From the IMG/VR virus record IMGVR_UViG_3300050122_000130, positions 1-64,000 of that record: a stretch of DNA of 64,000 bases. The stretch is one strand, 5' to 3'. Below, piece by piece: positions 33,442 to 57,570 of the stretch (positions are counted from its first letter, which is position 1; the number at the start of each line of letters is the position of its first letter). Under the pieces are notes generated by a model that worked only from the letters and a program-made list of their open reading frames with translations, searched no databases and was not told where the DNA came from. The stretch is from a virus. A program made the translations under genes and the position numbers.

Positions 33442-34545
33442 TTAGATGCCGATCATGCTCGCAATGGCGAACGGCTGACGCAAAACAGCGCCCATCGAGC
33501 CGCCACTCAGCTTCTGCTTCCACGATGACAGATCGGGGATCAGACGATGAGCACGCATTTTCTCGTTGAACGCGCAGAAGCCGGTCTGCTGACCGCGAAC
33601 GCTGGTGCAGATCAGCTGCATGAAGTTGCCACCGACAACGCCCTGCGGATTGCTCGAGGACTGAGCCTGGTACTGGATCGCGTCGATGATCTTCAGGTTC
33701 GGAATCTGCTTCAACAGATCCGAAACGTTGACATCGAACGAGTTCGTCGCGGTGAGCGCGAACTTGGACGCCGGAGAAAGCGCCAGCACGAATGGCGATT
33801 CCTGGTTGATGTTGCCGCCGGACTGCAGGATGAGTTGGATGACCAGCGCCTGGATGTCCAGATAGATCTCGTTCGGCGTCGCGGTGATGATGCCGTTGGT
33901 GATCCACTGGTTGTTGCCGTATGCCTTCGGTCCGGGCGTCAGCGCGGCCGTGAGGTTCGGATCGTTCAGCAGCCCGTAATTCTGCAGGCCCTTCACGCCG
34001 AAGAAGTATGTCTGGTTCTGGTAACGGTTCAGAGCCCAGGCGGCCGCGGCGTTCAGTTCGCTGACCCAGTTGATCTTCGCGAGACCAACGACATCGAGCT
34101 CGCGATCGCCGTATTGCAGGATCGTCTGATAGAGGTACGGCTGGCGCGAGGGGAAGTTCAGGTTGGTGCTGACCGAGCCGTTGTTGACGTAATCGTCGTA
34201 GCTCGAGACTTCACCGGTGTGCTCGGCAGTCGGGAACATGACCGAGTTGAGCGTCCAATCGCCCTTCTTTACTTCGCCGAGAATATCGGCGGCGCGCAGC
34301 GGGGAGAACAGGATCTCGTAGACTGTCGGGTCGATCATGGTCGACAGCCACACCGGAATGCCGGTGTTCAACGTGGTCGTGGTCGTCGGCTGCGCGTCCA
34401 TCGCGAGGCCTTGATCCATGGCGAGCTCGAAGTTGTGCTTCCAGCCGTCAGGGATGTACATGCGCGCGTTTTCAAAGATCGCGCCGCTCGACTCGTAGGT
34501 TTTGCGCTCCTGAGCGAACGCGGCGACAGCTTCGTGGCGATTCAT
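33442..34545 (-). CDS. major capsid protein (DUF2184-like)
   Basis: AMDAQP..N.GIP..IDP; EVKKGDW; YFFGV.GLQNYGLLNDP; EKMRAH. Confidence 0.92.
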   Translation of the reverse strand: MNRHEAVAAFAQERKTYESSGAIFENARMYIPDGWKHNFELAMDQGLAMDAQPTTTTTLNTGIPVWLSTMIDPTVYEILFSPLRAADILGEVKKGDWTLNSVMFPTAEHTGEVSSYDDYVNNGSVSTNLNFPSRQPYLYQTILQYGDRELDVVGLAKINWVSELNAAAAWALNRYQNQTYFFGVKGLQNYGLLNDPNLTAALTPGPKAYGNNQWITNGIITATPNEIYLDIQALVIQLILQSGGNINQESPFVLALSPASKFALTATNSFDVNVSDLLKQIPNLKIIDAIQYQAQSSSNPQGVVGGNFMQLICTSVRGQQTGFCAFNEKMRAHRLIPDLSSWKQKLSGGSMGAVLRQPFAIASMIGI

Positions 34546-34620: not shown

Positions 34621-35607
34621 TTAGGAGATGTTGGTGACCTTGATCAGTTCACCGACAGCACCAGCAGATGCAGCACGCCACTTCGTTTCGATCGAGGCCT
34701 GCGCCGAAATCGCGGTCGAAGAAGCCGTTTGCGACGGGCTCACCACATAAGTGCCGGCACCTCCCGCCGATCCGGTGAGCTGCTGTGTGACCACGGTACC
34801 GGTCGTCACGCCGCTGCCAGTCAGGATCTGACCGGGCCCGAAACCGGAGACCACCGTGCCACCGACCGTGAGAACACCGTAAGTGCCAGTGATCGTGGTC
34901 GATGCAGCGTTCTGCTCCGGGATATTGACGTTGTAACGGCCGAGACCGTTCAGCGCTTCACCCGCGAGCAGCGGGGTGATCTGGCTGACGATCTGCGTTC
35001 CGGTGGCAACGCCGGTACCGCTCAGAATCGAGCCGGGGTAGAAGTTGCCGGTCAATACGCCGCCGGCGGTGAACACGTCGCCGATGAGCGTGCTAGCCGT
35101 CGCATTGGCGGTCGCCGGCGCAATCGAAGATGCCGATCCAGAACCGCCGCTCGGCGTCGAGCCGGCAGCAGCAAACGAGGCCGAGCCATCCGCATAGTTG
35201 GCGAATGCCTTCATGCCGACAGTGGCGGCGGCGGCACCGTTGTTGACCACCCACATGTCGACTTCGTTGTAACAAGCGATCTGGAAACCGCTCTGCAGAT
35301 ATTGCACCGCGGTGCCCAGATAGGCAGTGATCATGCCGACCTGGCGTCGGGAGACGATACCCGCGGGCAAGCCAGAACCGAACGTGTTCAGCGTGGCCGG
35401 AGCATTGTCGTTGTCGATCGTGGCGTACGACGTCCAGCCGAAGCGGCCGATGACGCAGCCAGTGACGACAACACCGCTGATAACGCCAGCACCGGAGATG
35501 AGTCCGCCTTCGCCGGCGAGGACGGTAGCGCGCGGATTCGCCGAAGCAAAATCACCGGCATTGCCGGGCGCCTGGATCGAGTTAACCTGGTTGGGAAAGT
35601 CGGGCAT
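34621..35607 (-). CDS. capsid decoration / cement protein
   Basis: F.NQVN..APG.AGDFASANPR; immediately upstream of the capsid gene. Confidence 0.85.
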   Translation of the reverse strand: MPDFPNQVNSIQAPGNAGDFASANPRATVLAGEGGLISGAGVISGVVVTGCVIGRFGWTSYATIDNDNAPATLNTFGSGLPAGIVSRRQVGMITAYLGTAVQYLQSGFQIACYNEVDMWVVNNGAAAATVGMKAFANYADGSASFAAAGSTPSGGSGSASSIAPATANATASTLIGDVFTAGGVLTGNFYPGSILSGTGVATGTQIVSQITPLLAGEALNGLGRYNVNIPEQNAASTTITGTYGVLTVGGTVVSGFGPGQILTGSGVTTGTVVTQQLTGSAGGAGTYVVSPSQTASSTAISAQASIETKWRAASAGAVGELIKVTNIS

Positions 35608-35635
35608 CGAATTTTTCTCCTGTTCGATGAAAGTT

Positions 35636-35796
35636 GCGGGGAAGGGGATCAAAAAAATCCCCCTCCCCGGAATGGGAAGAGGGCCGAAAAGGTCACAGCC
35701 TGCGGTGCGTTCTTTCCGCCTACAGAGAATCGGAGGGCCAATTCTCTTTGCTAACGACGATCAGCTAAGGCTGTTACGAGCGGAGGAAGCCGCCCG
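35636..35796 (-). ncRNA. putative structured RNA: hairpin, multi-way junction and terminator
   Basis: CGGGCGG-CTTCCT-CCGCTCG; ACAGCCT/AGGCTGT closing three hairpins; CCCTCTTCCC/GGGGAGGGG followed by T7. Confidence 0.5.
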
Positions 35797-35802
35797 GTTC
35801 GT

Positions 35803-36876
35803 TTACTGGTGGCCGATACGCTCGAGGTTCTTGGCCAGACCCGGATTGCGCTTCGCGATCTCGCCGGAGGCGGAAGTCTGCTCCGCGGAATCCATCGCGT
35901 AGGTCTGCTTTTTGCCGCCGTCCTTCGGAGGCAGAGCATCGAAGGCAAACTTGAGCATTTCGACGTTTGCCTCTTTCGGCGGCTTCTTGCCGGAAGCGAT
36001 CTCGATCGCCTTGCTGAAGACCTGCGCAGCACTGTCGAAGGCCATGCCGCTGAGATTTCCGACGCGACCACGGACGTGATCCTTGGCAACGGCGACTGCA
36101 TCCATGCGGTCGCGCTCCTTCTTGATGCCGGCGTTGATGCCGGCCTGGATCTTCTCGTCCATCGCCTTGTCCTTCTCCTCGTCGTCTTCATCGTTGGCGG
36201 TTTCTTTGGGCGTCTCCGGATCGTGCTCTTCGTCTTCCTCGTTGACGTCCTTGTCCTTGGCGCCAGCGGTGAGCTTGCCGTCCTTGCTCTTCTTGGCATC
36301 TTTAGCCTTTTTGTCAGCCGCCTTCTTGGCTTCCATGCGCTTTTTCATGCGCTCGGCCTTCTCCTCGTCGGTCTCGGCCTCTTCGTCGTCGGCCATGTCC
36401 TCATCGTCCATGTCCTCGTCTTTGGCCTTGTCTTCCTTTTTGTCCTTCATATCGTCGGGGAAATCGTCGCACGCGACCTCGATCATATCGAGCACGGCAT
36501 CGAGCCCCTTCGGATCCAGCGCGCCGTCTTGCGCATACTGCGGATCGAGGTGACCCTCGACCGAAGCGTTGATCCATGCGCCAAGAACCGGACGCTTGGC
36601 CTTGAAATTCTTCGCATTGATATTGCGAAGACCCTTGTTCAGGTCGATCTTCGCATCCATCGCAAGCTGCGGACGCAGGAATGTGGTCAGCATGCCATAC
36701 GCGACAGTGCCGAGCGCCGACAGTTTAGCTTTCTTGATCATGGTCTTCTCCTTGATGTCAGGGTTAACGGAGTCGTATGCGCGCTCAGTCAGAAGTGACT
36801 CGTCGAGACCGAGCGCCACGATGGCCTCACGAGGAGTCTTGAATTTCTTGCGAAGTGCGTCACGCAATTTGCTCAT
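35803..36876 (-). CDS. head scaffolding protein
   Basis: Highly charged; many A-x-D motifs; between protease and decoration; ATGA coupling. Confidence 0.8.
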
Positions 36877-39413
36877 AGGTGCAGCCCCAGGATTGCCGAC
36901 TCGATCAGAGCCCACGGATCGATCGCGCCGTCGCCGACCACAACATCGCTACCCGCGCGGCCCTCAGAAACGAGCGCAACGTGATTTCCGATGATGTCGC
37001 GCATAACACCGTCGTAGGGCTTGCCCTCGTAAATGCCTGGCGTCATGTCAGCGCGGTAGCGATAGGCGCTGGACAATTCCTTTTTGCGTTTACTCTCGAC
37101 CGCGTTGATGCCGCGCTCAGCCCAGATGACGAGGCTGTTTTTCAGGTGCGGATGTTCGAACGAAGCGTCGGTACCGGTCGAACCGACCACGAGCTCAGGA
37201 CGATGGTTGGCGGCGTTGACGCCGACATGCTGATCGAGCAACGGCAGATTGTTGAAGGTCGACTCCGCCTTCTTCAGCTCCGCAGGATCTCGCAACAATT
37301 GATAGATACGGCCGGGATCGAGCCCCAGCTCCTTGTACTTCGGAATTTCCTTTCCGAGATACGGGTTCACAATCGCCTTCGAGATGTTCGAAATCTCGAC
37401 GTGCATGCGGCCGTCGGCGTCGATCCTGCGCACCGTCACCGGCGCGCGATCGAACGCCAAGCCGTGGCGCTCGATCCCAGGAATGGTTGCCCGGTCGAAC
37501 GCCAGCTCCTCGCCGTCGAGCTCGACGTCATGAATCTTGTCGGCGCCGTCGCCGTCCCAGCCGAACGGCACGATCTTGTCGTCTTCGTCGCGCGCCTCGA
37601 TCGTGCGTGACGCGCCGATCGATCCCAGCCGCTTCATGTGGCTCAGCAGGCCCTTGAAATTGAAGTCGCCGCTGTAGCGGACGGTCAGCGTGTGCTCGGC
37701 ATTGTACGGTTTCCGATCCCGCGCGAGGCCCGCGAACATGCCGTCCATCGCCTTCACACCGACTCGAGTCGCGAGATTCTTCTTCCTCGCAATGAGCCGA
37801 TCGGCCAATTCCTTGTCATCGCCGACGGCTTCGCGGATCTTCGCGTCCGGGATCTTTGAGACGCGCTCGACCGACGCCGAGAGCTCAGCTTCGGTCATCG
37901 GTGCGAACAGCTTCGCGGCGTCCGGGTTCATGCCCTTGTCGCGCAGTGTGTCGAATTCCGTAACCTTGTCGCCGAACGCCGCCCCCTTGGCCCCCCCCTG
38001 AGCACGGAAGCGCAGCGAACCGCCTACATCCAGCGTGGTCGTCTTACCTTCGAGGATCCCTTGATTGTCTCCACCCGTACCAGCCGCGTCCCAATTAGAA
38101 AGCCAGGCATGGATAGCGAAGTCTTTAGCCGCTTCTTTGCGCTCAGCCGGCGTGAACTCGCTGATGTTTTTCTTTTCGAGCTTCCGCCATTCCGTCGCAA
38201 CATGCTGACCGCCTTCCACATCGCGGTAGGGCAGCGTCGCGGCGCCGGCGAGCTGGTACAGGCGCGCGGCGGCGCGCTCATTGTCCGCGTGGGCCTTAGT
38301 CGGGGCTTTCTTGATGTAAAATTTGGAACCGCTTTTATCTTCGTAGGTTCCGCCCTCGTTCGATCCCAGCTTGCCGCCCTTTTTCGACAACTCGCCCATC
38401 TTCAAGGGTGAACTTGCGCCCTTCTCCGATGACTTTGCCTTTGAGGAGTTCCCGGAATGGGCTGATGCACTCGCAGAGGAACCGCTCCCGCTCCCGAATT
38501 TCCCGTCGTCTTTGCGCGGATGATCGCCCTCGTTCCATTCGTCGCTCGCTAAGGTTCCAAGGCTGCGCATGAACAGCGCCATATCGAAGGCCTTCGTGAT
38601 GCCCAGGCCCTTGCTCACGGTCTTGAAGATGGGAGCAACCCCCGACCCGCCGCATTTATCGCACCCAGCGCCCGCGCAGGCCCCGCAAACGCTATCCTGC
38701 GCAAGACGACGCTTCGCCAGCCGCTTCAGGCGGGCGTCAATCTTCCCGCCGACCGGGGTTCCGGTGTTGACGATCGTCGCCAGCGCCGGCTGATTATCGT
38801 CAGCGTGTTCCGGTTCCGCTTCTTCCTCGCGCGTCCACTTCGCGAAGTTCTCGCGCAGCTCCGCCCAATCCTCCGGCGCCATGTCCTGCGCCATGCCGAG
38901 ATTTTCGCCAAGCACCCGGGTGACGTTCGGATGCATCGGCTCCGGCAGTTTGTCGAGCGGAAACCAGCCGAATTCCGAATGCTCCTCGTTCAGCTTCGGT
39001 TTGAACTTGTCCTCGACCGATTCAGTGAACGTGTGGAACATCATCCCGTTCGGAGTCTGCACCAGGTCGAGCAGCTTCTTCCGGCCGGTAGCGGCCGGCG
39101 CCGTCGATCCGAGCTCCTCGCGAGCTTCGCGATCGGCGCATTGCTCCGGAGATTCCCCTGCATCAGCTTTGCCGCCCGGTAGCGCCCAGTGCCCGACGTA
39201 GTTGTCCTTGCCTTCCTCGCCCGCGCGCTTGATCAGTAGCACATCGCCATCTGGTGCCACGAACACGATGCCGGCCGCGATCGGCAGCGCTGCGTCTTCT
39301 CCGGCTTCCTTGTATGCGATAGCAGCAGCCTGCTTTACAGGTCTTCCCAGCTTAGTGAGTTCAGCTATATTAGCCGATATCACTTTCTGGGATGATCCCT
39401 GCTTCAGTGGCAT
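36873..39413 (-). CDS. prohead protease (DUF2213-like) polyprotein with NUDIX, Zn-finger, kinase-like and WDGDG domains
   Basis: Nudix box [23 protein letters not shown]; GSNEGG..FYIK..NE..NWD..DN..DVGG; C-terminal LLDQH..ELSSAY..NHVALV..GRAG. Confidence 0.88.
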
Positions 39414-40131
39414 TTTTGTTTTTCCATCTATTTGGCGGTCGCGTGCCAAGGCGCTTATGCGCTGCGCTCATCTTGGCTTTAGTTTCATCGGAATGCTTGC
39501 GGCCAATGCTTAGCTGTCTCAGCATTTCCATATGTTCGGGAGACGAACGAAGACCGCTAGTGTTTCTTGTCGCACTCATTTTTTGGCGAGTTTCCAACGA
39601 AACCTTGCGACCTGTTTGAGTCTGCGATCTTTTCAGATTGCTCTCTGGAGTAATAATTTGATTAGCTCTTGCAACTCGGATTTTATCGCGAGTTTTTTCA
39701 GAAAGAGGTATCCCGGCTCGACTACTCAATACCAAACGGCCTGCATCCGTCATGATGTGCGGTTTCGACATTTTTTTGAGCGTTTCCGCTGAATGTCGTC
39801 TGCCTGCGCGTTTAGCTGCGACCTCTGGTGAAGACATCGGGCTGGTCTCTCCGCCCAATCCGACATTGTAGCCTTGTGATCGGTCAGTCGTCCGAAAGAA
39901 CCTAATGAACTCTATTTCTAGGCTCAGTATTTCGTGCTTCTCACCAAGCGCCAGAACTTGAGGAACCAAGTTGTTAGTCCCGTAGCGCATGATAGCCTGA
40001 TGAACGGGTAGATTAGATCCTCGTCTCGCATCACTGCAATGCCTCATCCAACGATGTCTTATCGTTTTTGAGGTAATGCCAAAATATCGCTTTCCATTCG
40101 GAAATTCGATCACATAGAGTAGGTAAGCCAT
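39370..40131 (-). CDS. GIY-YIG homing endonuclease with NUMOD3 repeats
   Basis: LLY..YFGIT..RW..H..AI..YG..E..GYN..GG; repeated GR.HS.ET..KMS. Confidence 0.9.
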
Positions 40132-44032: not shown

Positions 44033-44866
44033 CTACGAGAAGCCCGGCACGATCGGGATGCTCACACATCGGCAGTTAATCAACTGGCCTGGATGGATGA
44101 ACTCTTTGACCGCAGGGTCATACCATCCTTTGGTGACGTCGTAGGTTTTGCCGTTGTTCTTGACATGCGTCGGGCGCGGGACCTTCCCCCCGCCTGAATG
44201 TCGCCATGTCGCGGTAGTGATGCCGTTCTCAATGAACCGCACGCGCGACATGTTCGCCGTCGCTTTATTGTTCTGATCTTTCGATATCAGCGCCGCACGC
44301 CGCTTCGTCACGCCGTACCGCTTCTCAAGTTGTTTCGAAAGTGTTCCAAGGTCCCGGCCAGCCGATACCGACCGCATCACGAGTCCTTCGACTTCCTGCA
44401 GGTGCTGGCTGGCGATCGATTTGATCAACCCAACATTCTCCGCGGTCGTCGCCTCGACCACGTCCTTCATGGCTTGCGACATCTGAAACCGAACAGAGAA
44501 GCCGCCTTTTCGCAAGATCGAAGCGAGCTGCTGGTCCGTCCGCTTGTGCGCGGCCGTCGCGAAGTATTTCGCCAGTTGCGGTGCCGCCCAATCGAATCTC
44601 TTCAGCCAGCGCTTCTTCAGCAACTCGATCGCTTTCTTGAGCGCGTTTGCCGGCAGGATATCGTCCATCGCCATCGCTGGCGGGTTCTCGCGGTACGCAG
44701 CCTTGATCCAGTAATCGACGGATGCGTTCATTTCCTTGATGAGCCGGTCCAGCTTCTTGCGGTAGGCGACGCTGAGGCCGATGTTCGGATGCACCGGCCG
44801 CAGCTTCTTCGGCTTCGAGGCCTTGGATGCTTGGCCAACTGAAGTCGCGCGAAATATTCCGTGCAT
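44033..44866 (-). CDS. MuF / SPP1 gp7-like head morphogenesis protein
   Basis: ENVGLIKSI..RAALI.KDQNNK..W.HS..R..H..PGQLINCRC. Confidence 0.92.
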   Translation of the reverse strand: MHGIFRATSVGQASKASKPKKLRPVHPNIGLSVAYRKKLDRLIKEMNASVDYWIKAAYRENPPAMAMDDILPANALKKAIELLKKRWLKRFDWAAPQLAKYFATAAHKRTDQQLASILRKGGFSVRFQMSQAMKDVVEATTAENVGLIKSIASQHLQEVEGLVMRSVSAGRDLGTLSKQLEKRYGVTKRRAALISKDQNNKATANMSRVRFIENGITTATWRHSGGGKVPRPTHVKNNGKTYDVTKGWYDPAVKEFIHPGQLINCRCVSIPIVPGFS

Positions 44867-45146
44867 CGAACTTTCCAACGTAGGCCCGAACGAACGACAT
44901 ATCGTCGGGCACGATCGATTGCATTTTTAGCAGCTGGTCGACCATGGATTTGACGTCGGAGTAAATCTCCTCCGGCGTGGCCATGGCCCAGAACTTACCG
45001 CTGCCGTAGAGCGTCACAGCGGTCTTGCTGGGACCGATGGCCATATCCATCCCGTAGACGACATCAACCGGCGCCTTCGGCAGGGCCGGCGCGATCGCCG
45101 CGGCCGCAACGCCCGTCAGAAACGCTCTGCGGTTAAGTTCGGGCAT
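44325..45146 (-). CDS. twin-arginine-leader protein; only the 5' ~95 codons are likely real, the rest overlaps MuF
   Basis: MPELNRRAFLTGVAAAAIA; GGAGG RBS. Confidence 0.45.
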   Translation of the reverse strand: MPELNRRAFLTGVAAAAIAPALPKAPVDVVYGMDMAIGPSKTAVTLYGSGKFWAMATPEEIYSDVKSMVDQLLKMQSIVPDDMSFVRAYVGKFDARNISRDFSWPSIQGLEAEEAAAGASEHRPQRRLPQEAGPAHQGNERIRRLLDQGCVPREPASDGDGRYPAGKRAQESDRVAEEALAEEIRLGGTATGEILRDGRAQADGPAARFDLAKRRLLCSVSDVASHEGRGRGDDRGECWVDQIDRQPAPAGSRRTRDAVGIGWPGPWNTFETT

Positions 45147-49500: not shown

Positions 49501-50085
49501 ATCGCTCTCAGGTTCGGCTTCACCGGCAATCGTGAGCCGGATCCACTTCCTGGTCATCTCGGTCGCAAGGCGTTCCGAGATCCGGCGATACTCCGGCCGC
49601 TGGGTCAGCTGCGACAGATACGCGTACCCAAGAAAGCCGATGCCCTCCGAGAAGGCCTCGCCGATCGGGTTCGCGAAATTCCACGCGTTTGTGTACGACT
49701 CGTTGGCCCAGGTCGCGATCGCGCCGTCCAGCGCCATTTCCGGCTCGGCGCCCTGGGGTAGAACGCCCGGAGGTGGCTTGAATGCCTGGAACGGGTTGTA
49801 GAGCGCCGCTCCTTGGCTCTGCGAGGCCCCTGAACGCGTTTTACGTGCGGCCCGCGCCATAACTTCGGAACTTATCTTCATCGGCGCACGGGGCTCGACA
49901 ACGGCCGCATGGTGCTTCTCAAGATCGACAGCTGTGCGCGGTGGCACTTTGTCCGCCGCGGGCGCCGGCTTGGCTGTGGGAGCCGGCGTCGCCGCGACAG
50001 CAGGGGTGTGTCGCATCACACCGAGAACGGCCTCCTTGATGGTTTCTGAAGTCGGCCGCTGCCGCTTATACCGGGTCACCGTCAC
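46579..50085 (-). CDS. portal protein (DUF1073-like) fused to a wHTH-like domain and a C-terminal ADP-ribosyltransferase
   Basis: Portal motifs F.GY.YL.QL.QRPEYR..EMTRKWI and LLGITPSGLNASSEGE; ART R-S-E triad YRK / FTSTS / GEAEVLF. Confidence 0.9.
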   Translation of the reverse strand: MTVTRYKRQRPTSETIKEAVLGVMRHTPAVAATPAPTAKPAPAADKVPPRTAVDLEKHHAAVVEPRAPMKISSEVMARAARKTRSGASQSQGAALYNPFQAFKPPPGVLPQGAEPEMALDGAIATWANESYTNAWNFANPIGEAFSEGIGFLGYAYLSQLTQRPEYRRISERLATEMTRKWIRLTIAGEAEPESDASDEDADEADEGLGADKAPDAPLEDEEDDDADGAPAGGAVADDDEEDDEPTPEEIAQRKRNEALQKKLKAIEEDMKRLDLRGKFKTVAEFDGWMGRSHLYIDTGDSDDPDELKSDLGNGSDETSKAQFKKGSLKNIKHIEPIWCYPVNYNANDPLADDWYNPQVWFAMAKQVHVSRLLTFVGRPVPDILKPSYAFGGLSMSQMAKPYVDNWLRTRQAVTNLIESFSVSGVYTNAQSLLQGGGEEVLDRIDLFNKARSNAGAMVLDKETEEFFNISTPLGTLDHLQAQSQEQMSSVSGIPLIVLLGITPSGLNASSEGELRVFYDLVHAMQENLFRDKLKRIIDFIQLNLFGEVDPSIGFEFEPLWSLDEKGESEVKKTEAETHQIYVDMGVIGQEEVREIVIADDDSPYNGLEPDDLPEPPADQGMVQGGGAGGGGEGGSGSRDNKEVDGAADEAIEPSEIAADVWAFDDGQFDESKVKRDQDGKFSTTGGGGTPASGKSSAAKALADVAKGFVGAKFNSKKEIIGHLLEKGTTAKEIMETMGWPSVSMPAQAKSLGMKLEKYTENGKLMYKGHPMTDAEKKAAKEAAALTPEKKAAIAKSWEGPAVTEKTPEPAKLNALAEFMSGEGGTYPKFLGAVAEALQKNDTDTAANLLKYNPAFAEQLSENMKPAMKDQMKKMGLLQDKPTVPQATPEELKKAKKGTTLPISSSEPEAVTAIKEFNAKYAGKEGLSDAQLNQKVADYKATLAKVKQTESAAAEAAAKKVEENAKKAAAEKAEKEAKAQKELDEKFAADPELKTHYEAMEALFGGGDAAKAYVAQAEKKVKSAGLSKHISGADAVPIIAYSGSHYGKVNSELRRGTMTVAQYKFMKSLNSGLEKLPKYTQTTYRKASLTPEQFKAYIPGHIIEERGFTSTSKNQGTWSGDYSYTVHGKNGRDIEKLSSHPGEAEVLFKSGSRFHVKSVKGTHIELEEV

Positions 50086-52181
50086 CGGCGCATGCCCGCG
50101 GCTTTGGCGATAACCGCCTTGCTGATCTTCATCGGCAGCCTCGCGTGCGTTCGGTGCATGACCGCCAGCGCAAGCGCCATGACGCAGTCGTCGTTGAAGC
50201 CTTCGGGCGCGCTGTTATGCGTGGCAAACCCGGATGCGATGAATGTCTTTGTCGTTGTCCCGAGAGCTACCACTTCGCGGTCGCCAAGGTATTCAACCGA
50301 CTCAATGGCTACTTTCTCATCGGTCCATAGCGCGCCAATTCGATTTGGATCAAACTTGGCTAGAAGTCGCTTCGGTCTAATGAGACCTAGAAATCGCAAC
50401 ACTTCTGCTTGACCGCCCTTCAGACTTAATCCGATTACGTCACGATTGGTGCCGCCACTCCCGCTTTCCGACCAATTAAATTGAAGCTTTGTCAGACAGG
50501 ATCGCACCTCCTGCAGCATAGCGTTATCCCGCTGCGCCATTGAGACTCTGAACGTCGATCCATCTCGACCAATGCGATCCTGCTGCGAAAGAGAGCCTTC
50601 GCCATCGAAGGCACCGGCTAGATAACCAGCCTCATAAGAATTGAGAGATTGTCCCCACTCCTTCGCTACCCTGATTAGCTTATGCGGAACGTGGCGTGGT
50701 GACTTGCTCGAGGATATACCTCGGAGTTGGGAAGTGGTCCGCCACTGCATCGGGCCATTGCTGCTTGCAGTCAGCCAGAGATGTTCCGACGACGAAATAA
50801 ATTCATGACCGTCTTCGAGCGTAATGCGGTGACATGGTCGCATAATTCTATCGGCATCGGTGACGGTCGAAGATCGCCACTTACGGACCTTCTGTCTGCC
50901 GACCGGGTTCTCATCGAATGCGGTAAGACGATCACCGGGACGGAGCGAACCTACGGGCACATAACGAAGGTCGTCGGTAAGAACTGGGGTTTCTGCATCC
51001 ATGCAGTACCTTACACCAGTTCTGGTGTACTCGTACTCGAAGATCTCGAGCTCGCGTTGGATGTTGCCCGCATGATCGTGCGGCAACGCGCCGTCCGGCG
51101 CAGCGGGGAATGCCACATCGCCAGATTGAATGGCGAGTGCGAGACCTTCCATCAAAAGCTGCTTTGACTTCGAACTGAAAATGAACTCTTCGACCTTCGA
51201 ACCTGGTGTCTTCTGCAAGCGCTCCACGATTGGATCGCCGACACCGGTCGCGTCCGCCAGCGTCGGCGTATAACCAATCGACGCTTTTAGGATCGGGATC
51301 TGCTGCTCCCAACTCCCCTGCATGCGGATGAACTTCGTAAGCCGGCCATGCTCATCGAGACCGCAATCGACCGTCCAGTCCTGTTTCTTCGCAAAGTCGA
51401 GACCGTGCACCACCGATGCGCCGACTTGAATGCCGGGCAGATTGGCGCATGCCGCAATCGACTTGAGGCCAAAAGGATTGCCCTGATCGTCTGATGGCTC
51501 AGCGAGATAGAGCTCCTTGAAGACGGCGTCCGGCAGAACTTTCTTTGCGTCCGCGACTTCGTCTGCCTCGAGAACGTGCGCGGCGATCGCATCGATGGCT
51601 GTGATCTTGTGGTAGCCGAAGTTAGGCTCCTCACCCTTCTCAGCCTTGCGTGCGAGCTGATAGAACCAATTTCGCCGGCCTTTGACGTTGCCTATAATCC
51701 GGATCGGACCGCGGGTCGCGGTCAGTGTCGACCGAACGGCAAACCAAGCGTTCTCTTTCGTGCGGCTCGCCTCGTCCATCACCGCGGCATAGACGTCCTC
51801 GCCGTAGAGCGAGTCCGGCTTGTCCGCCGATTTGAACCAGAGCACCGCGCCGTTGATCAGCGTGATGGTCTTGAGCGTTTGGTTCTCGGTGCGCAGCTCT
51901 TGCGGGATGGCGCGCAAGCATCGCCTGAAAGCGATATCGGCCTGTCCTGAGACCGGAGCTACCCACCAGTAATTCCAGCCCTCCTGACCGTGGAACGCTT
52001 GCTCGCTGAACCAAACGATACAGCCCGATGTCTTGCCGGCCTTCGTCGAGGCCTCGATAAACGAATAGCGGCGATCGTCAAAGATCGCATCGAGCTGTTT
52101 CGGATAGAGATACGGTCGCTCGTAATCGAGAAGAAATTCCTCGATATTGGCGACGGCGCCGACGGACGTAGCCTTGGCCAC
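50082..52181 (-). CDS. terL: terminase large subunit with intein
   Basis: Walker A-like ASTKAGKT, VMDEA, GLDFAK..D and DDCVMALALA. Confidence 0.93.
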   Translation of the reverse strand: MAKATSVGAVANIEEFLLDYERPYLYPKQLDAIFDDRRYSFIEASTKAGKTSGCIVWFSEQAFHGQEGWNYWWVAPVSGQADIAFRRCLRAIPQELRTENQTLKTITLINGAVLWFKSADKPDSLYGEDVYAAVMDEASRTKENAWFAVRSTLTATRGPIRIIGNVKGRRNWFYQLARKAEKGEEPNFGYHKITAIDAIAAHVLEADEVADAKKVLPDAVFKELYLAEPSDDQGNPFGLKSIAACANLPGIQVGASVVHGLDFAKKQDWTVDCGLDEHGRLTKFIRMQGSWEQQIPILKASIGYTPTLADATGVGDPIVERLQKTPGSKVEEFIFSSKSKQLLMEGLALAIQSGDVAFPAAPDGALPHDHAGNIQRELEIFEYEYTRTGVRYCMDAETPVLTDDLRYVPVGSLRPGDRLTAFDENPVGRQKVRKWRSSTVTDADRIMRPCHRITLEDGHEFISSSEHLWLTASSNGPMQWRTTSQLRGISSSKSPRHVPHKLIRVAKEWGQSLNSYEAGYLAGAFDGEGSLSQQDRIGRDGSTFRVSMAQRDNAMLQEVRSCLTKLQFNWSESGSGGTNRDVIGLSLKGGQAEVLRFLGLIRPKRLLAKFDPNRIGALWTDEKVAIESVEYLGDREVVALGTTTKTFIASGFATHNSAPEGFNDDCVMALALAVMHRTHARLPMKISKAVIAKAAGMRR
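50214..51005 (-). mobile_element. 264-aa intein with a LAGLIDADG-type endonuclease region
   Basis: Y|CMDAETPVLT ... FIASGFATHN|S; SSEHLW block B; YLAGAFDGEG. Confidence 0.93.
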
Positions 52182-55846: not shown

Positions 55847-57112
55847 CTAAGCGGCAACCTTGGATCGCTCTTTCTCAATCTGATCGAACGTCTTCTTCGA
55901 ACCCTGTAGCGTTGCCTTCTGACCTGAAAATTTCATCCAGCGACGAACGCACAGATCCACATACGGAGGATTGAGCTCGCACGCGAGACAAACGCGGCCG
56001 GTAGTCTCGGCCGCGATAATCATCGTACCACTGCCGCAGTACGGTTCGAACACGGCATCACCGCCGTCCGAGTAAAGCCGCAGGATCCTGTTCAGCAGCT
56101 CGACGGGCTTCGCCCATGGCACCGGCCGATCCCAATGGCCGGTCGAGAACAGTTTGCTGTAATCCTCCTGCTCGAGGCCGCGCCGCGGCGCCAGATTGCC
56201 GATCAACACCACGTAATCCAGATCAGGCATCAGGTGTCCGTTGTGCGCCGGCGCCGGATATTTCCGATGCAGCACCGCAACGTCCCAATTCAGCTTTTTC
56301 TCACGCGCCAGGTCCAGGTAATCGGCGAGCAGCCGCTTCGAGGTGAAGATCACGTTGGTCTCGCGCAGCGGCACTAGCTCGGAGACTTTGAAGTCGCCCA
56401 AACTGGCTTCAGCGATCTTTTGTCCACGGCGAATATGCGTTGTCTTCCCATGAAGACCGCCACCCTGCGTTTCTAGGCTATACGGCGGATCGGTCGCCAT
56501 CAGCTTAGGAACATCATCCCCGAGCAGCTTCTTTACCACCTTCGCGTCTGTCGCGTCGCCGCAGATCAGCCGATGCTTGCCCATCACCCAGACATCGCCA
56601 GGCTTCGAGATCGCCGGTGCCAGGTCAGGCAGATCGTCCGGCGTGCCATTGCCGGCGCTGCCGCCGACGAACGTCGCCAGGCGCACGTTGCTGAACCCGG
56701 TCAGATGCAGCGGATAATCCAACTTCGCGAGCGTCGTGAGGCCCACGCGCAGTAGCTTATTGTCAAACCCTGTCATCGCTGGCAGCGAGTTGTCGCTGAT
56801 AACCACGGCCCATTTCTGCGCCGGCGAGAGGCCCTTGCGCATGATCGTCGGGACTTGGGTCAGGTCCGCCTTGCGCGCAGCGAGGTGCCGACCGTGGCCC
56901 TTCAGGATCGTGTTGTTCTCGTCGACCAGGATGGGCTGATCGAAACCGAATTCCTTGATGTTCGCCGCAATCGCCGCGACCTGCTCCGGAGTGTGGATCT
57001 TCGGATTGTTCGGGAACGCGACGAGATCTTCGACTTTGCGCAGGACAATTTCGTCCGCGGTGAATTTCAGAACGGCATCGACCGTCCTGCGCTTTGTCGA
57101 AGGCTTCGCCAT
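55847..57112 (-). CDS. ParB-N domain plus N6/N4 DNA methyltransferase
   Basis: NPK.H..FGF.QPILVD..GHGR; TDPPY; KPVELL; EPYCGSGT. Confidence 0.9.
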   Translation of the reverse strand: MAKPSTKRRTVDAVLKFTADEIVLRKVEDLVAFPNNPKIHTPEQVAAIAANIKEFGFDQPILVDENNTILKGHGRHLAARKADLTQVPTIMRKGLSPAQKWAVVISDNSLPAMTGFDNKLLRVGLTTLAKLDYPLHLTGFSNVRLATFVGGSAGNGTPDDLPDLAPAISKPGDVWVMGKHRLICGDATDAKVVKKLLGDDVPKLMATDPPYSLETQGGGLHGKTTHIRRGQKIAEASLGDFKVSELVPLRETNVIFTSKRLLADYLDLAREKKLNWDVAVLHRKYPAPAHNGHLMPDLDYVVLIGNLAPRRGLEQEDYSKLFSTGHWDRPVPWAKPVELLNRILRLYSDGGDAVFEPYCGSGTMIIAAETTGRVCLACELNPPYVDLCVRRWMKFSGQKATLQGSKKTFDQIEKERSKVAA

Positions 57113-57366
57113 TACGCGGTGGGAGCGGCCGGAGTCGTGTTGGCGGGAATCGCGGGCGCCAAAGCGGCGGCCGACGACTGAAGATCCTGCACCGCCTGGA
57201 TCAGAGCGGCCTTGTCTTCCGGCGTATCGCCGGCGTTCGCGATCTGCGTCTGGAGCGCGGTGATCTGCGCGGACAGACCGGACAGCGCCGCAGCGGCCGC
57301 TGCCTCGATGCTCTTCTGAGCGGTGACTTGCGCAACGAGCGCTTGGGCTTCTGCTGTAAGGGCCAT
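57112..57366 (-). CDS. Ala/Gln-rich coiled-coil small protein
   Basis: AAGGAG RBS; TAATG coupling. Confidence 0.75.
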   Translation of the reverse strand: MALTAEAQALVAQVTAQKSIEAAAAAALSGLSAQITALQTQIANAGDTPEDKAALIQAVQDLQSSAAALAPAIPANTTPAAPTA

Positions 57367-57570
57367 GAGTAATCTCCTTGTTTCGTTCTGGTTGCTGATG
57401 ATCAGCGAGCGGAGACTCGTGGGCCATTTGATGTTGAACATCCGCACGCCCTCACTAATGCTTGGAACAGTGACGCCGTTCCCTGCGGTCCAGAAACGTT
57501 GACGGTAATCCGTGTTGCAATTTTTGTAAAAGTGCCGGAACCGCTGTCTTCGAAACCGAACGGTAAACTC

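Follow-up and report, generated by a model that had tools for sequence, protein, structure and literature searches.

Layout of the polyprotein gene

We analysed a stretch of viral DNA of 64,000 nucleotides (the window; positions 1-64,000 of the IMG/VR record IMGVR_UViG_3300050122_000130), to which all coordinates below refer, and focused on one minus-strand gene that encodes a predicted head-maturation protease of the DUF2213 family preceded by several further domains. The source record is an uncultured sequence of 95,488 bases that is ~90% complete. As tail sheath, baseplate and tape-measure proteins are encoded in it, this ~95-kb phage is contractile-tailed (a myovirus). The start of the protease gene lies at the ATG at 39413, and homologues open with identical M-P-L-K residues. 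The first-pass annotation of this DNA had listed a leader, a Nudix box, a cysteine cluster, a kinase-like domain and a W-D-G-D-G domain ahead of the peptidase, and all of these were found on a single open reading frame (ORF) of 846 amino acids (aa), roughly where they had been placed. The gene and its parts are as follows:

36873..39413, minus strand: protease polyprotein, whole gene (leader, cargo modules, DUF2213 protease and short tail); a single uninterrupted 846-aa ORF with Pfam and PHROG matches
39297..39413, minus strand: leader, aa 1-39 (phrog_2423, E 2e-13)
38925..39284, minus strand: NUDIX hydrolase domain, aa 44-163 (PF00293, E 1.4e-21, 77.4 bits against a cut-off of 21.1)
39105-39173, minus strand: Nudix box, aa 81-103; complete G-x5-E-x7-R-E-U-x-E-E-x-G-U, read directly
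38751..38879, minus strand: segment resembling the capsid propeptide/N-arm junction, aa 179-221, with A-x-D at aa 204-206; local alignment to capsid protein aa 32-65 (34351-34452, minus strand)
38640..38687, minus strand: zinc knuckle with four cysteines, aa 243-258; two adjacent C-x-x-C-x-G-x-G units in the DnaJ-type CR repeat pattern
38496..38537, minus strand: HPR-type tag, [FW]-x-E-x-x-H-P-R-x3-G-x-F, aa 293-306, just after A-S-D at aa 289-291
37743..38411, minus strand: atypical protein-kinase-like domain, aa ~335-557; assigned by predicted fold and structure searches, with no family-model match
37494..37715, minus strand: small W-D-G-D-G domain (~70 aa), aa ~567-640; 83 relatives
36930..37430, minus strand: DUF2213 head-maturation protease domain, aa 662-828 (PF09979, E 5e-47, 160 bits against a cut-off of 22; phrog_2229, E 5e-91)
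36876..36917, minus strand: C-terminal tail after A-I-D (aa 830-832); kept in relatives with a separate scaffold gene (P0003, P0004, P0006, P0092, P0098)

Each module has many database relatives, so the set is no chance pattern. The leader gave no Pfam match at E ≤ 10. The same leader forms the native N-terminus of DUF2213 protease-scaffold proteins such as P0211 and P0213, which belong to the many DUF2213 proteases without any cargo, and it is also found on proteins of 43-67 aa and on stand-alone W-D-G-D-G proteins. Since the leader is the ordinary N-terminus of cargo-less proteases, the cargo has been inserted between leader and protease: the NUDIX domain, a single-zinc knuckle, the HPR-tagged kinase and the W-D-G-D-G domain all stand between the 39-aa leader and the DUF2213 domain.

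Within the Nudix box, G81, E96, E99, E100 and G102 are invariant among the 18 relatives aligned. Scores against the NCBIfam equivalog models were all far below cut-off (for NudE, 22 bits against a cut-off of 169), and the closest solved and curated NUDIX relatives are MutT/NTP-pyrophosphatase-like, none of them being ADP-ribose-specific. The zinc knuckle is conserved in relatives. Its first cysteine is replaced in P0008, P0009 and P0011 by histidine, which is still a metal ligand, and in P0005 a spacer insert separates the two units; together, the substitution and the spacer favour a knuckle that binds a single zinc. For aa 170-338, no zinc-finger model was among the Pfam matches at E ≤ 10, which consisted only of a weak RepB match.

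An exhaustive search for the W-D-G-D-G domain yielded 83 relatives, which are either stand-alone proteins of 85-150 aa, several with the same leader, or proteins that combine DUF2213 and NUDIX. Two of the latter, from other phages (P0134 and P0136), also carry Acb1 (PF23474). Acb1 is a family of phosphodiesterases with a proven role against the cyclic-oligonucleotide-based anti-phage signalling system (CBASS), and its presence on DUF2213 proteases therefore links this type of carrier to a proven counter-defence enzyme family. The AlphaFold2 (AF2) model of the W-D-G-D-G domain is of medium confidence (predicted local distance difference test, pLDDT, 78.6). The domain has no Pfam match, its best BFVD match reached only E 0.78, and no PDB chain was found at Z ≥ 2. 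At a guess, the D-G-D-G-x-D turn resembles one RTX-type calcium-binding repeat, and multi-stretch matches of the W-D-G-D-G domain to giant repeat proteins would then probably stem from this likeness, which is likewise a guess. In P0006, a close relative, a second W-D-G-D-G-like domain stands right after the NUDIX domain.

An undescribed kinase-like domain and its carriers

No Pfam family (aa 332-559, E ≤ 10), NCBIfam model or PDB sequence (E ≤ 10) matched the kinase-like region, so its fold was revealed only by structure prediction. The AF2 model, built on an alignment of 30 relatives, has a mean pLDDT of 94.6 and a predicted template modelling score (pTM) of 0.91. Foldseek, the check that the first-pass annotation had proposed for this domain, ranked CtkA of H. 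pylori first (E 1.6e-5) and gave 98 matches at E ≤ 0.001, every listed one of which was a kinase. An independent all-against-all aligner (VIA) also placed CtkA at the top (Z 13.9 over 196 residues, root-mean-square deviation 3.4), followed by dozens of kinases, including CotH (Z 12.5), MavQ (11.6), PI4KII-alpha (11.3), HipA (10.5) and the Rio kinases (~10). ESM Atlas returned weak neighbours only (HipA_2, 0.92; PI3_PI4_kinase, 0.91). On the strength of this model, we assign the domain to the protein-kinase-like (PKL) superfamily, with a predicted bilobal fold. The earlier description of a HipA/PI3-4-kinase-like domain was thus right at the level of the fold, given the confident model and the matches to CtkA, PI4KII-alpha and HipA. 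Hidden Markov models (HMMs) of the HipA, PI3/PI4-kinase and CotH families gave no match at E ≤ 10.

The domain shares its fold with CtkA (3akj), CotH (5jda), MavQ (7m7a), PI4KII-alpha (4pla) and HipA (4pu3), at Z 10.5-13.9 over 184-206 residues, and has the same kind of active-site set (a lysine, a glutamate, an Asp...Asn catalytic loop and a metal-binding aspartate). It differs from these atypical kinases in that it is only 9-17% identical to them and has no HMM or sequence match, in its compactness (~220 aa), in its N-W-D-x6-D-N catalytic loop and in an invariant R-x-x-G-x-x-K after the metal-binding aspartate. A search of 5.8 billion proteins yielded more than 150 relatives, and with an HMM made from the kinase domain 117 family members (38-86% identity) were aligned. 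The G-S-N-x-G-G loop (aa 350-355), K368 and E379 are kept in 115-116 of the 117 (K368 and E379 each in 116), and D442, D449, N450, D462, R470, G473 and K476 in all 117. Going by the order of the motifs rather than by superposition, K368, E379, D442, N450 and D462 would be the ATP-binding lysine, the helix-C glutamate, the catalytic aspartate, the metal-binding asparagine and the DFG-type aspartate. With its active site intact and conserved, the enzyme appears to be active.

We counted domain partners by hand over the 117 kinase-bearing proteins. The kinase shares its polypeptide with an ADP-ribosyltransferase (ART) in ~57 cases, with NUDIX in 36, with a portal domain in 28, with DUF2213 in 18 and with MuF in 10, and a few proteins add topoisomerase IB, WGR, GNAT or intein domains. 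The layout is reversed in P0077, P0080 and P0090, where the protease comes first and the cargo after it. In the close relatives P0092 and P0098, exactly the block of tag plus kinase is missing, and NUDIX, zinc knuckle, W-D-G-D-G domain and protease are all present. This free order and the clean absence of the block point to a mobile cassette with three carriers, portal, MuF and protease, all of which end up inside the head. P0006 has an extra ART-like insert headed by its own HPR tag, an arrangement that suggests the gain of cassettes at tag boundaries.

The kinase domain is present in only 20 of 50,697 cultured-phage records, inside giant proteins labelled 'hypothetical' or 'ADP-ribosyltransferase', and ~305 IMG/VR contigs encode a relative. 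The cultured phages with the domain include the Pseudomonas phages Dolphis (gp117), Jeremy and Touem01, Escherichia phage ECML-606-1 (gp47) and Aeromonas phage ST4. Among the kinase-bearing viral records of at least 55 kb (n = 21), 16 have an ART, 13 a NUDIX domain and 10 both; the two with neither are complete genomes. An obligate set of ART, NUDIX and kinase was rejected on account of these two complete records, and the three are frequent companions, not an obligate pathway.

Probable cut sites, tags and the head-gene module

The polyprotein gene lies in a head-gene cluster, with the terminase, portal-ART and MuF genes upstream; immediately downstream follow the genes for scaffold, decoration and capsid proteins. 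Between the MuF and polyprotein genes there are several small ORFs and a homing endonuclease gene. NUDIX, kinase and protease thus share one ORF inside a head-gene cluster, as befits a head-fused effector. The neighbouring genes are:

50082-52181, minus strand: large terminase, 699 aa
46579..50085, minus strand: portal with C-terminal cargo ending in ART, a companion carrier (PF06381, PF03496, PF01129)
44033-44878, minus strand: MuF
39370-40131, minus strand: GIY-YIG + NUMOD3 homing endonuclease, directly upstream of the protease gene
35803..36876, minus strand: scaffold gene, matching the C-terminal part of phrog_2229
34621-35652, minus strand: decoration/minor capsid protein
33442..34545, minus strand: major capsid protein (phrog_264), with two A-M-D sites just before a mature-type N-arm

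The DUF2213 domain is related to the N-terminal half of Pa193 gp24 (PDB 9b40_G; E 6e-12), and the order of protease/scaffold, decoration protein and capsid protein is the same in Pa193. In contrast to the polyprotein, gp24 has no N-terminal cargo and its scaffold is fused, whereas here the scaffold is a separate, overlapping gene, its ATG overlapping the protease stop (A-T-G-A, 36873-36876). As protease and scaffold are fused in many relatives (P0005, P0008, P0014 and others), this lineage has split the two. The short tail that follows the A-I-D is a candidate capsid-targeting or scaffold-docking peptide. A likeness between this tail and the scaffold N-terminus was considered and rejected as not significant, since 680 of 1000 shuffles scored as well. 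The Pa193 DUF2213-scaffold protein gp24 has been detected in mature virions, with a gp24 fragment seen under the five-fold vertices (PMC11456595).

Motifs of the form A-[MFYQ]-D are strongly enriched in the head proteins. The polyprotein has 6 against 0.63 expected from shuffles (p 0.0005), the scaffold 7 against 0.57 and the capsid protein 2 against 0.25, and none was found in any of eight non-head control ORFs. The only A-[MFYQ]-D of the portal (aa 662-664) lies exactly at the border between portal domain and cargo. Every domain of the polyprotein is flanked by A-x-D sites, which lie at aa 175, 238, 275, 289, 555, 564, 638, 653 and 830. The first eight of these are kept in relatives while the surrounding linkers are not, and the site at aa 830 is common only to the relatives with a split scaffold. 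The capsid protein aligns with Pa193 gp26, and in the cryo-EM model of gp26 the first residue is 66, two positions behind the A-M-D of gp26 itself (PMC11456595). The prohead protease gp245 of SPN3US cuts capsid and ejection proteins after A-X-E (PMC10052503), from which a site ending in aspartate is a small step. Taken together, the A-x-D motifs are probable maturation cut sites.

A second recurring element is the HPR-type tag, which precedes the kinase in most relatives. We found 97 copies of it in 66 of 120 family proteins, and in 63 of the 97 an A-x-D lies at most 14 residues upstream. At its cargo border, the portal has a degenerate HPR tag (aa 662-680) after the A-[MFYQ]-D, with V-K-R in place of H-P-R. 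Some 300 portal residues lie between this degenerate tag and the ART. Third, aa 179-221 of the polyprotein align with the propeptide/N-arm junction of the capsid protein with a score of 49, against 24.5 +/- 4.4 for shuffles, none of 1000 of which reached 49. The likeness spans the A-x-D site and the Q-P...N-T-G-x-P stretch that follows it. Judged from this alignment, the segment is possibly a copy of the natural substrate, acting as a substrate mimic or as a capsid-docking peptide.

One could read the extra domains as decaying passengers, or as inert filler that is shredded at maturation as the scaffold would be, because some A-x-D motifs lie inside the domains and such sites abound in the scaffold of this phage. 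This is highly improbable: both enzymes have kept their catalytic residues almost without exception in more than 100 diverged relatives, the predicted kinase structure is compact and modelled with confidence, and the internal sites are less conserved than those at the borders.

A probable packaged cargo and its alternatives

We consider it probable that this head-maturation protease gene is built as a polyprotein whose enzyme cargo is packed into the capsid, released by cleavage at A-x-D and likely co-injected with the DNA. The polyprotein would enter the procapsid through its protease domain or its C-terminal tail, together with the translationally coupled scaffold, and domain or tail would dock to the scaffold or the capsid interior. 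The protease would then cut after A-x-D, so that the capsid protein is trimmed and the scaffold shredded, and would free leader plus NUDIX (aa 1-177), zinc knuckle (aa 241-277), tag plus kinase (aa 292-557, ~28 kDa) and W-D-G-D-G domain (aa 567-640). The folded enzymes would stay in the head at the copy number of the protease, not at the twelve of the portal, and exit with the DNA. In the next host, before phage gene expression, the kinase may phosphorylate a host target, most likely a protein; the NUDIX domain may hydrolyse a nucleotide-type substrate (for example an ADP-ribose derivative, a signalling nucleotide or a nucleotide cap), and the portal-borne ART would act alongside both. Packaging, survival of maturation and injection are steps that we infer from this arrangement.

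Several points weigh against this proposal. Synthesis of the enzymes takes place late, in the producer cell, where they could already act, and the phage is an uncultured IMG/VR record, known from its sequence. Proteolytic activity of DUF2213 is taken from annotation and from the conservation of H729, S781 and H811 in an alignment that includes Pa193 gp24. A-x-D is also found inside folded domains (aa 53, 429 and 607), so that the cargo might be degraded further. The equivalog models assign the NUDIX domain neither to the ADP-ribose pyrophosphatases nor to the NudE type, and its subfamily is not fixed by sequence. Finally, near-equal fold matches span protein kinases (CtkA, CotH, HipA, Rio) and lipid kinases (MavQ, PI4KII), so the fold does not fix the substrate class of the kinase.

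Activity in the producer cell could take two forms. First, the cargo may work in the cell or procapsid where it is made, with the kinase phosphorylating scaffold, capsid and portal to regulate assembly and the NUDIX domain clearing nucleotides locally. CotH kinases phosphorylate spore-coat proteins, and CotH is the second-best fold match (Z 12.5); moreover, the gene belongs to the late head genes, its translation is coupled to that of the scaffold, and its enzymes are tethered to assembly proteins. However, the modules are optional, with P0092 and P0098 lacking the kinase and P0211 and P0213 all cargo, which makes an assembly factor unlikely, and in their place other proteins carry ART and Acb1, which are known to act against the host. 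We therefore give an assembly role only a small chance. Second, the enzymes may counter defence without being injected: bacteria sense late proteins such as portal, terminase and capsid, and the fusion would place the enzymes near them and so blunt late abortive infection in the same cell. This alternative has been raised for head-linked ARTs (PMC9503650, section 3.7.1), and late expression ensures that the enzymes are present while head proteins accumulate. It leaves unexplained, however, the conserved bracketing cut sites, the tag at module starts and the restriction of carriers to capsid-interior proteins, and we regard it, too, as unlikely.

Packaging and injection of the cargo would also accord with what is known of other phages. 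The Alt and internal proteins of T4 are enzymes that are packed into the head, trimmed by the protease and ejected with the DNA; part of this background is given in the introduction of PMC5512222. As in T4, SPN3US and phiKZ, the cargo here would be packed in the head, trimmed after a short motif that ends in an acidic residue and ejected with the DNA. In contrast to those systems, where cargo proteins are separate genes with a targeting peptide, the cargo here lies within the protease gene, its motif ends in aspartate and it is known from sequence alone. Polyvalent head-packaged effectors have been described (Iyer et al. 2017, PMC5512222), and T4 NudE-like Nudix domains fused to MuF, portal and a capsid-processing serine peptidase have been read as probably packaged and injected (Iyer et al. 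2022, PMC9503650, section 3.5.2), so the general idea is not new. Like the polyvalent proteins, the present polyprotein carries several effector enzymes per polypeptide and is tied to head proteins of portal-terminase phages, with ART as the commonest partner. It differs from them in its kinase, which has a full atypical-kinase fold and does not match Kinase-PolyVal (PF18762); that model found nothing in the whole 95-kb record at E ≤ 10, nor did it appear in the Pfam scan.

The locus is a real, well-formed example of a known strategy, and it adds new components: a conserved atypical kinase family, the W-D-G-D-G domain, the layout of cut sites and tags, and the putative capsid-junction mimic. 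The last three (W-D-G-D-G domain, HPR-type tag with A-x-D bracketing, and capsid-junction mimic) were not found in PMC5512222 or PMC9503650, and the part of the literature on DUF2213, COG3566 and phage-packaged atypical kinases that was covered holds no description of the present kinase family. In this locus the maturation protease is itself the carrier, and the known ART, Nudix and Acb1 cargo is joined by a kinase family that is unannotated and whose active site is strictly conserved. Enzymes that arrive together with the phage DNA act ahead of all phage gene expression, and would thus be first-line tools against bacterial immunity. The locus also suggests simple rules by which cargo may be loaded and released, their elements being an A-x-D cut site, an HPR tag and a copied capsid junction. 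Should these rules prove right, packaged effectors could be annotated elsewhere on their basis, and proteins could be loaded into phage capsids.

The earlier annotation had seen in these domains and the portal ART a packaged writer/eraser kit. Its packaged part fits the carriers, the sister proteins with Acb1, the A-x-D bracketing and the published cases (PMC5512222, PMC9503650), and its notion of a kit has to be loosened, as the enzymes are not an obligate unit (2 of 21 records have neither ART nor NUDIX). A more far-reaching version would hold that this undescribed kinase family is delivered by the virion and acts in a single chemical pathway together with the ART and NUDIX modules that usually accompany it, and that the A-x-D/HPR grammar is then a general, transferable code for loading and releasing head cargo. 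The kinase could, for instance, phosphorylate or trim ADP-ribose marks against their removal, or the substrate that it phosphorylates could be an immune signal of nucleotide or lipid type instead of a protein. We think this joint reading doubtful.

Three observations concern the neighbouring genes. The first 44 bases of the protease gene also belong to the homing endonuclease gene. The large terminase has a LAGLIDADG-like match at aa 516-570, just under the Pfam cut-off, which may stem from an intein or from the insertion of a homing endonuclease. Further along the window (55847-57427, minus strand), there is a protein of 526 aa that, according to its PHROG matches, has both a ParB-like nuclease domain and a DNA methyltransferase.

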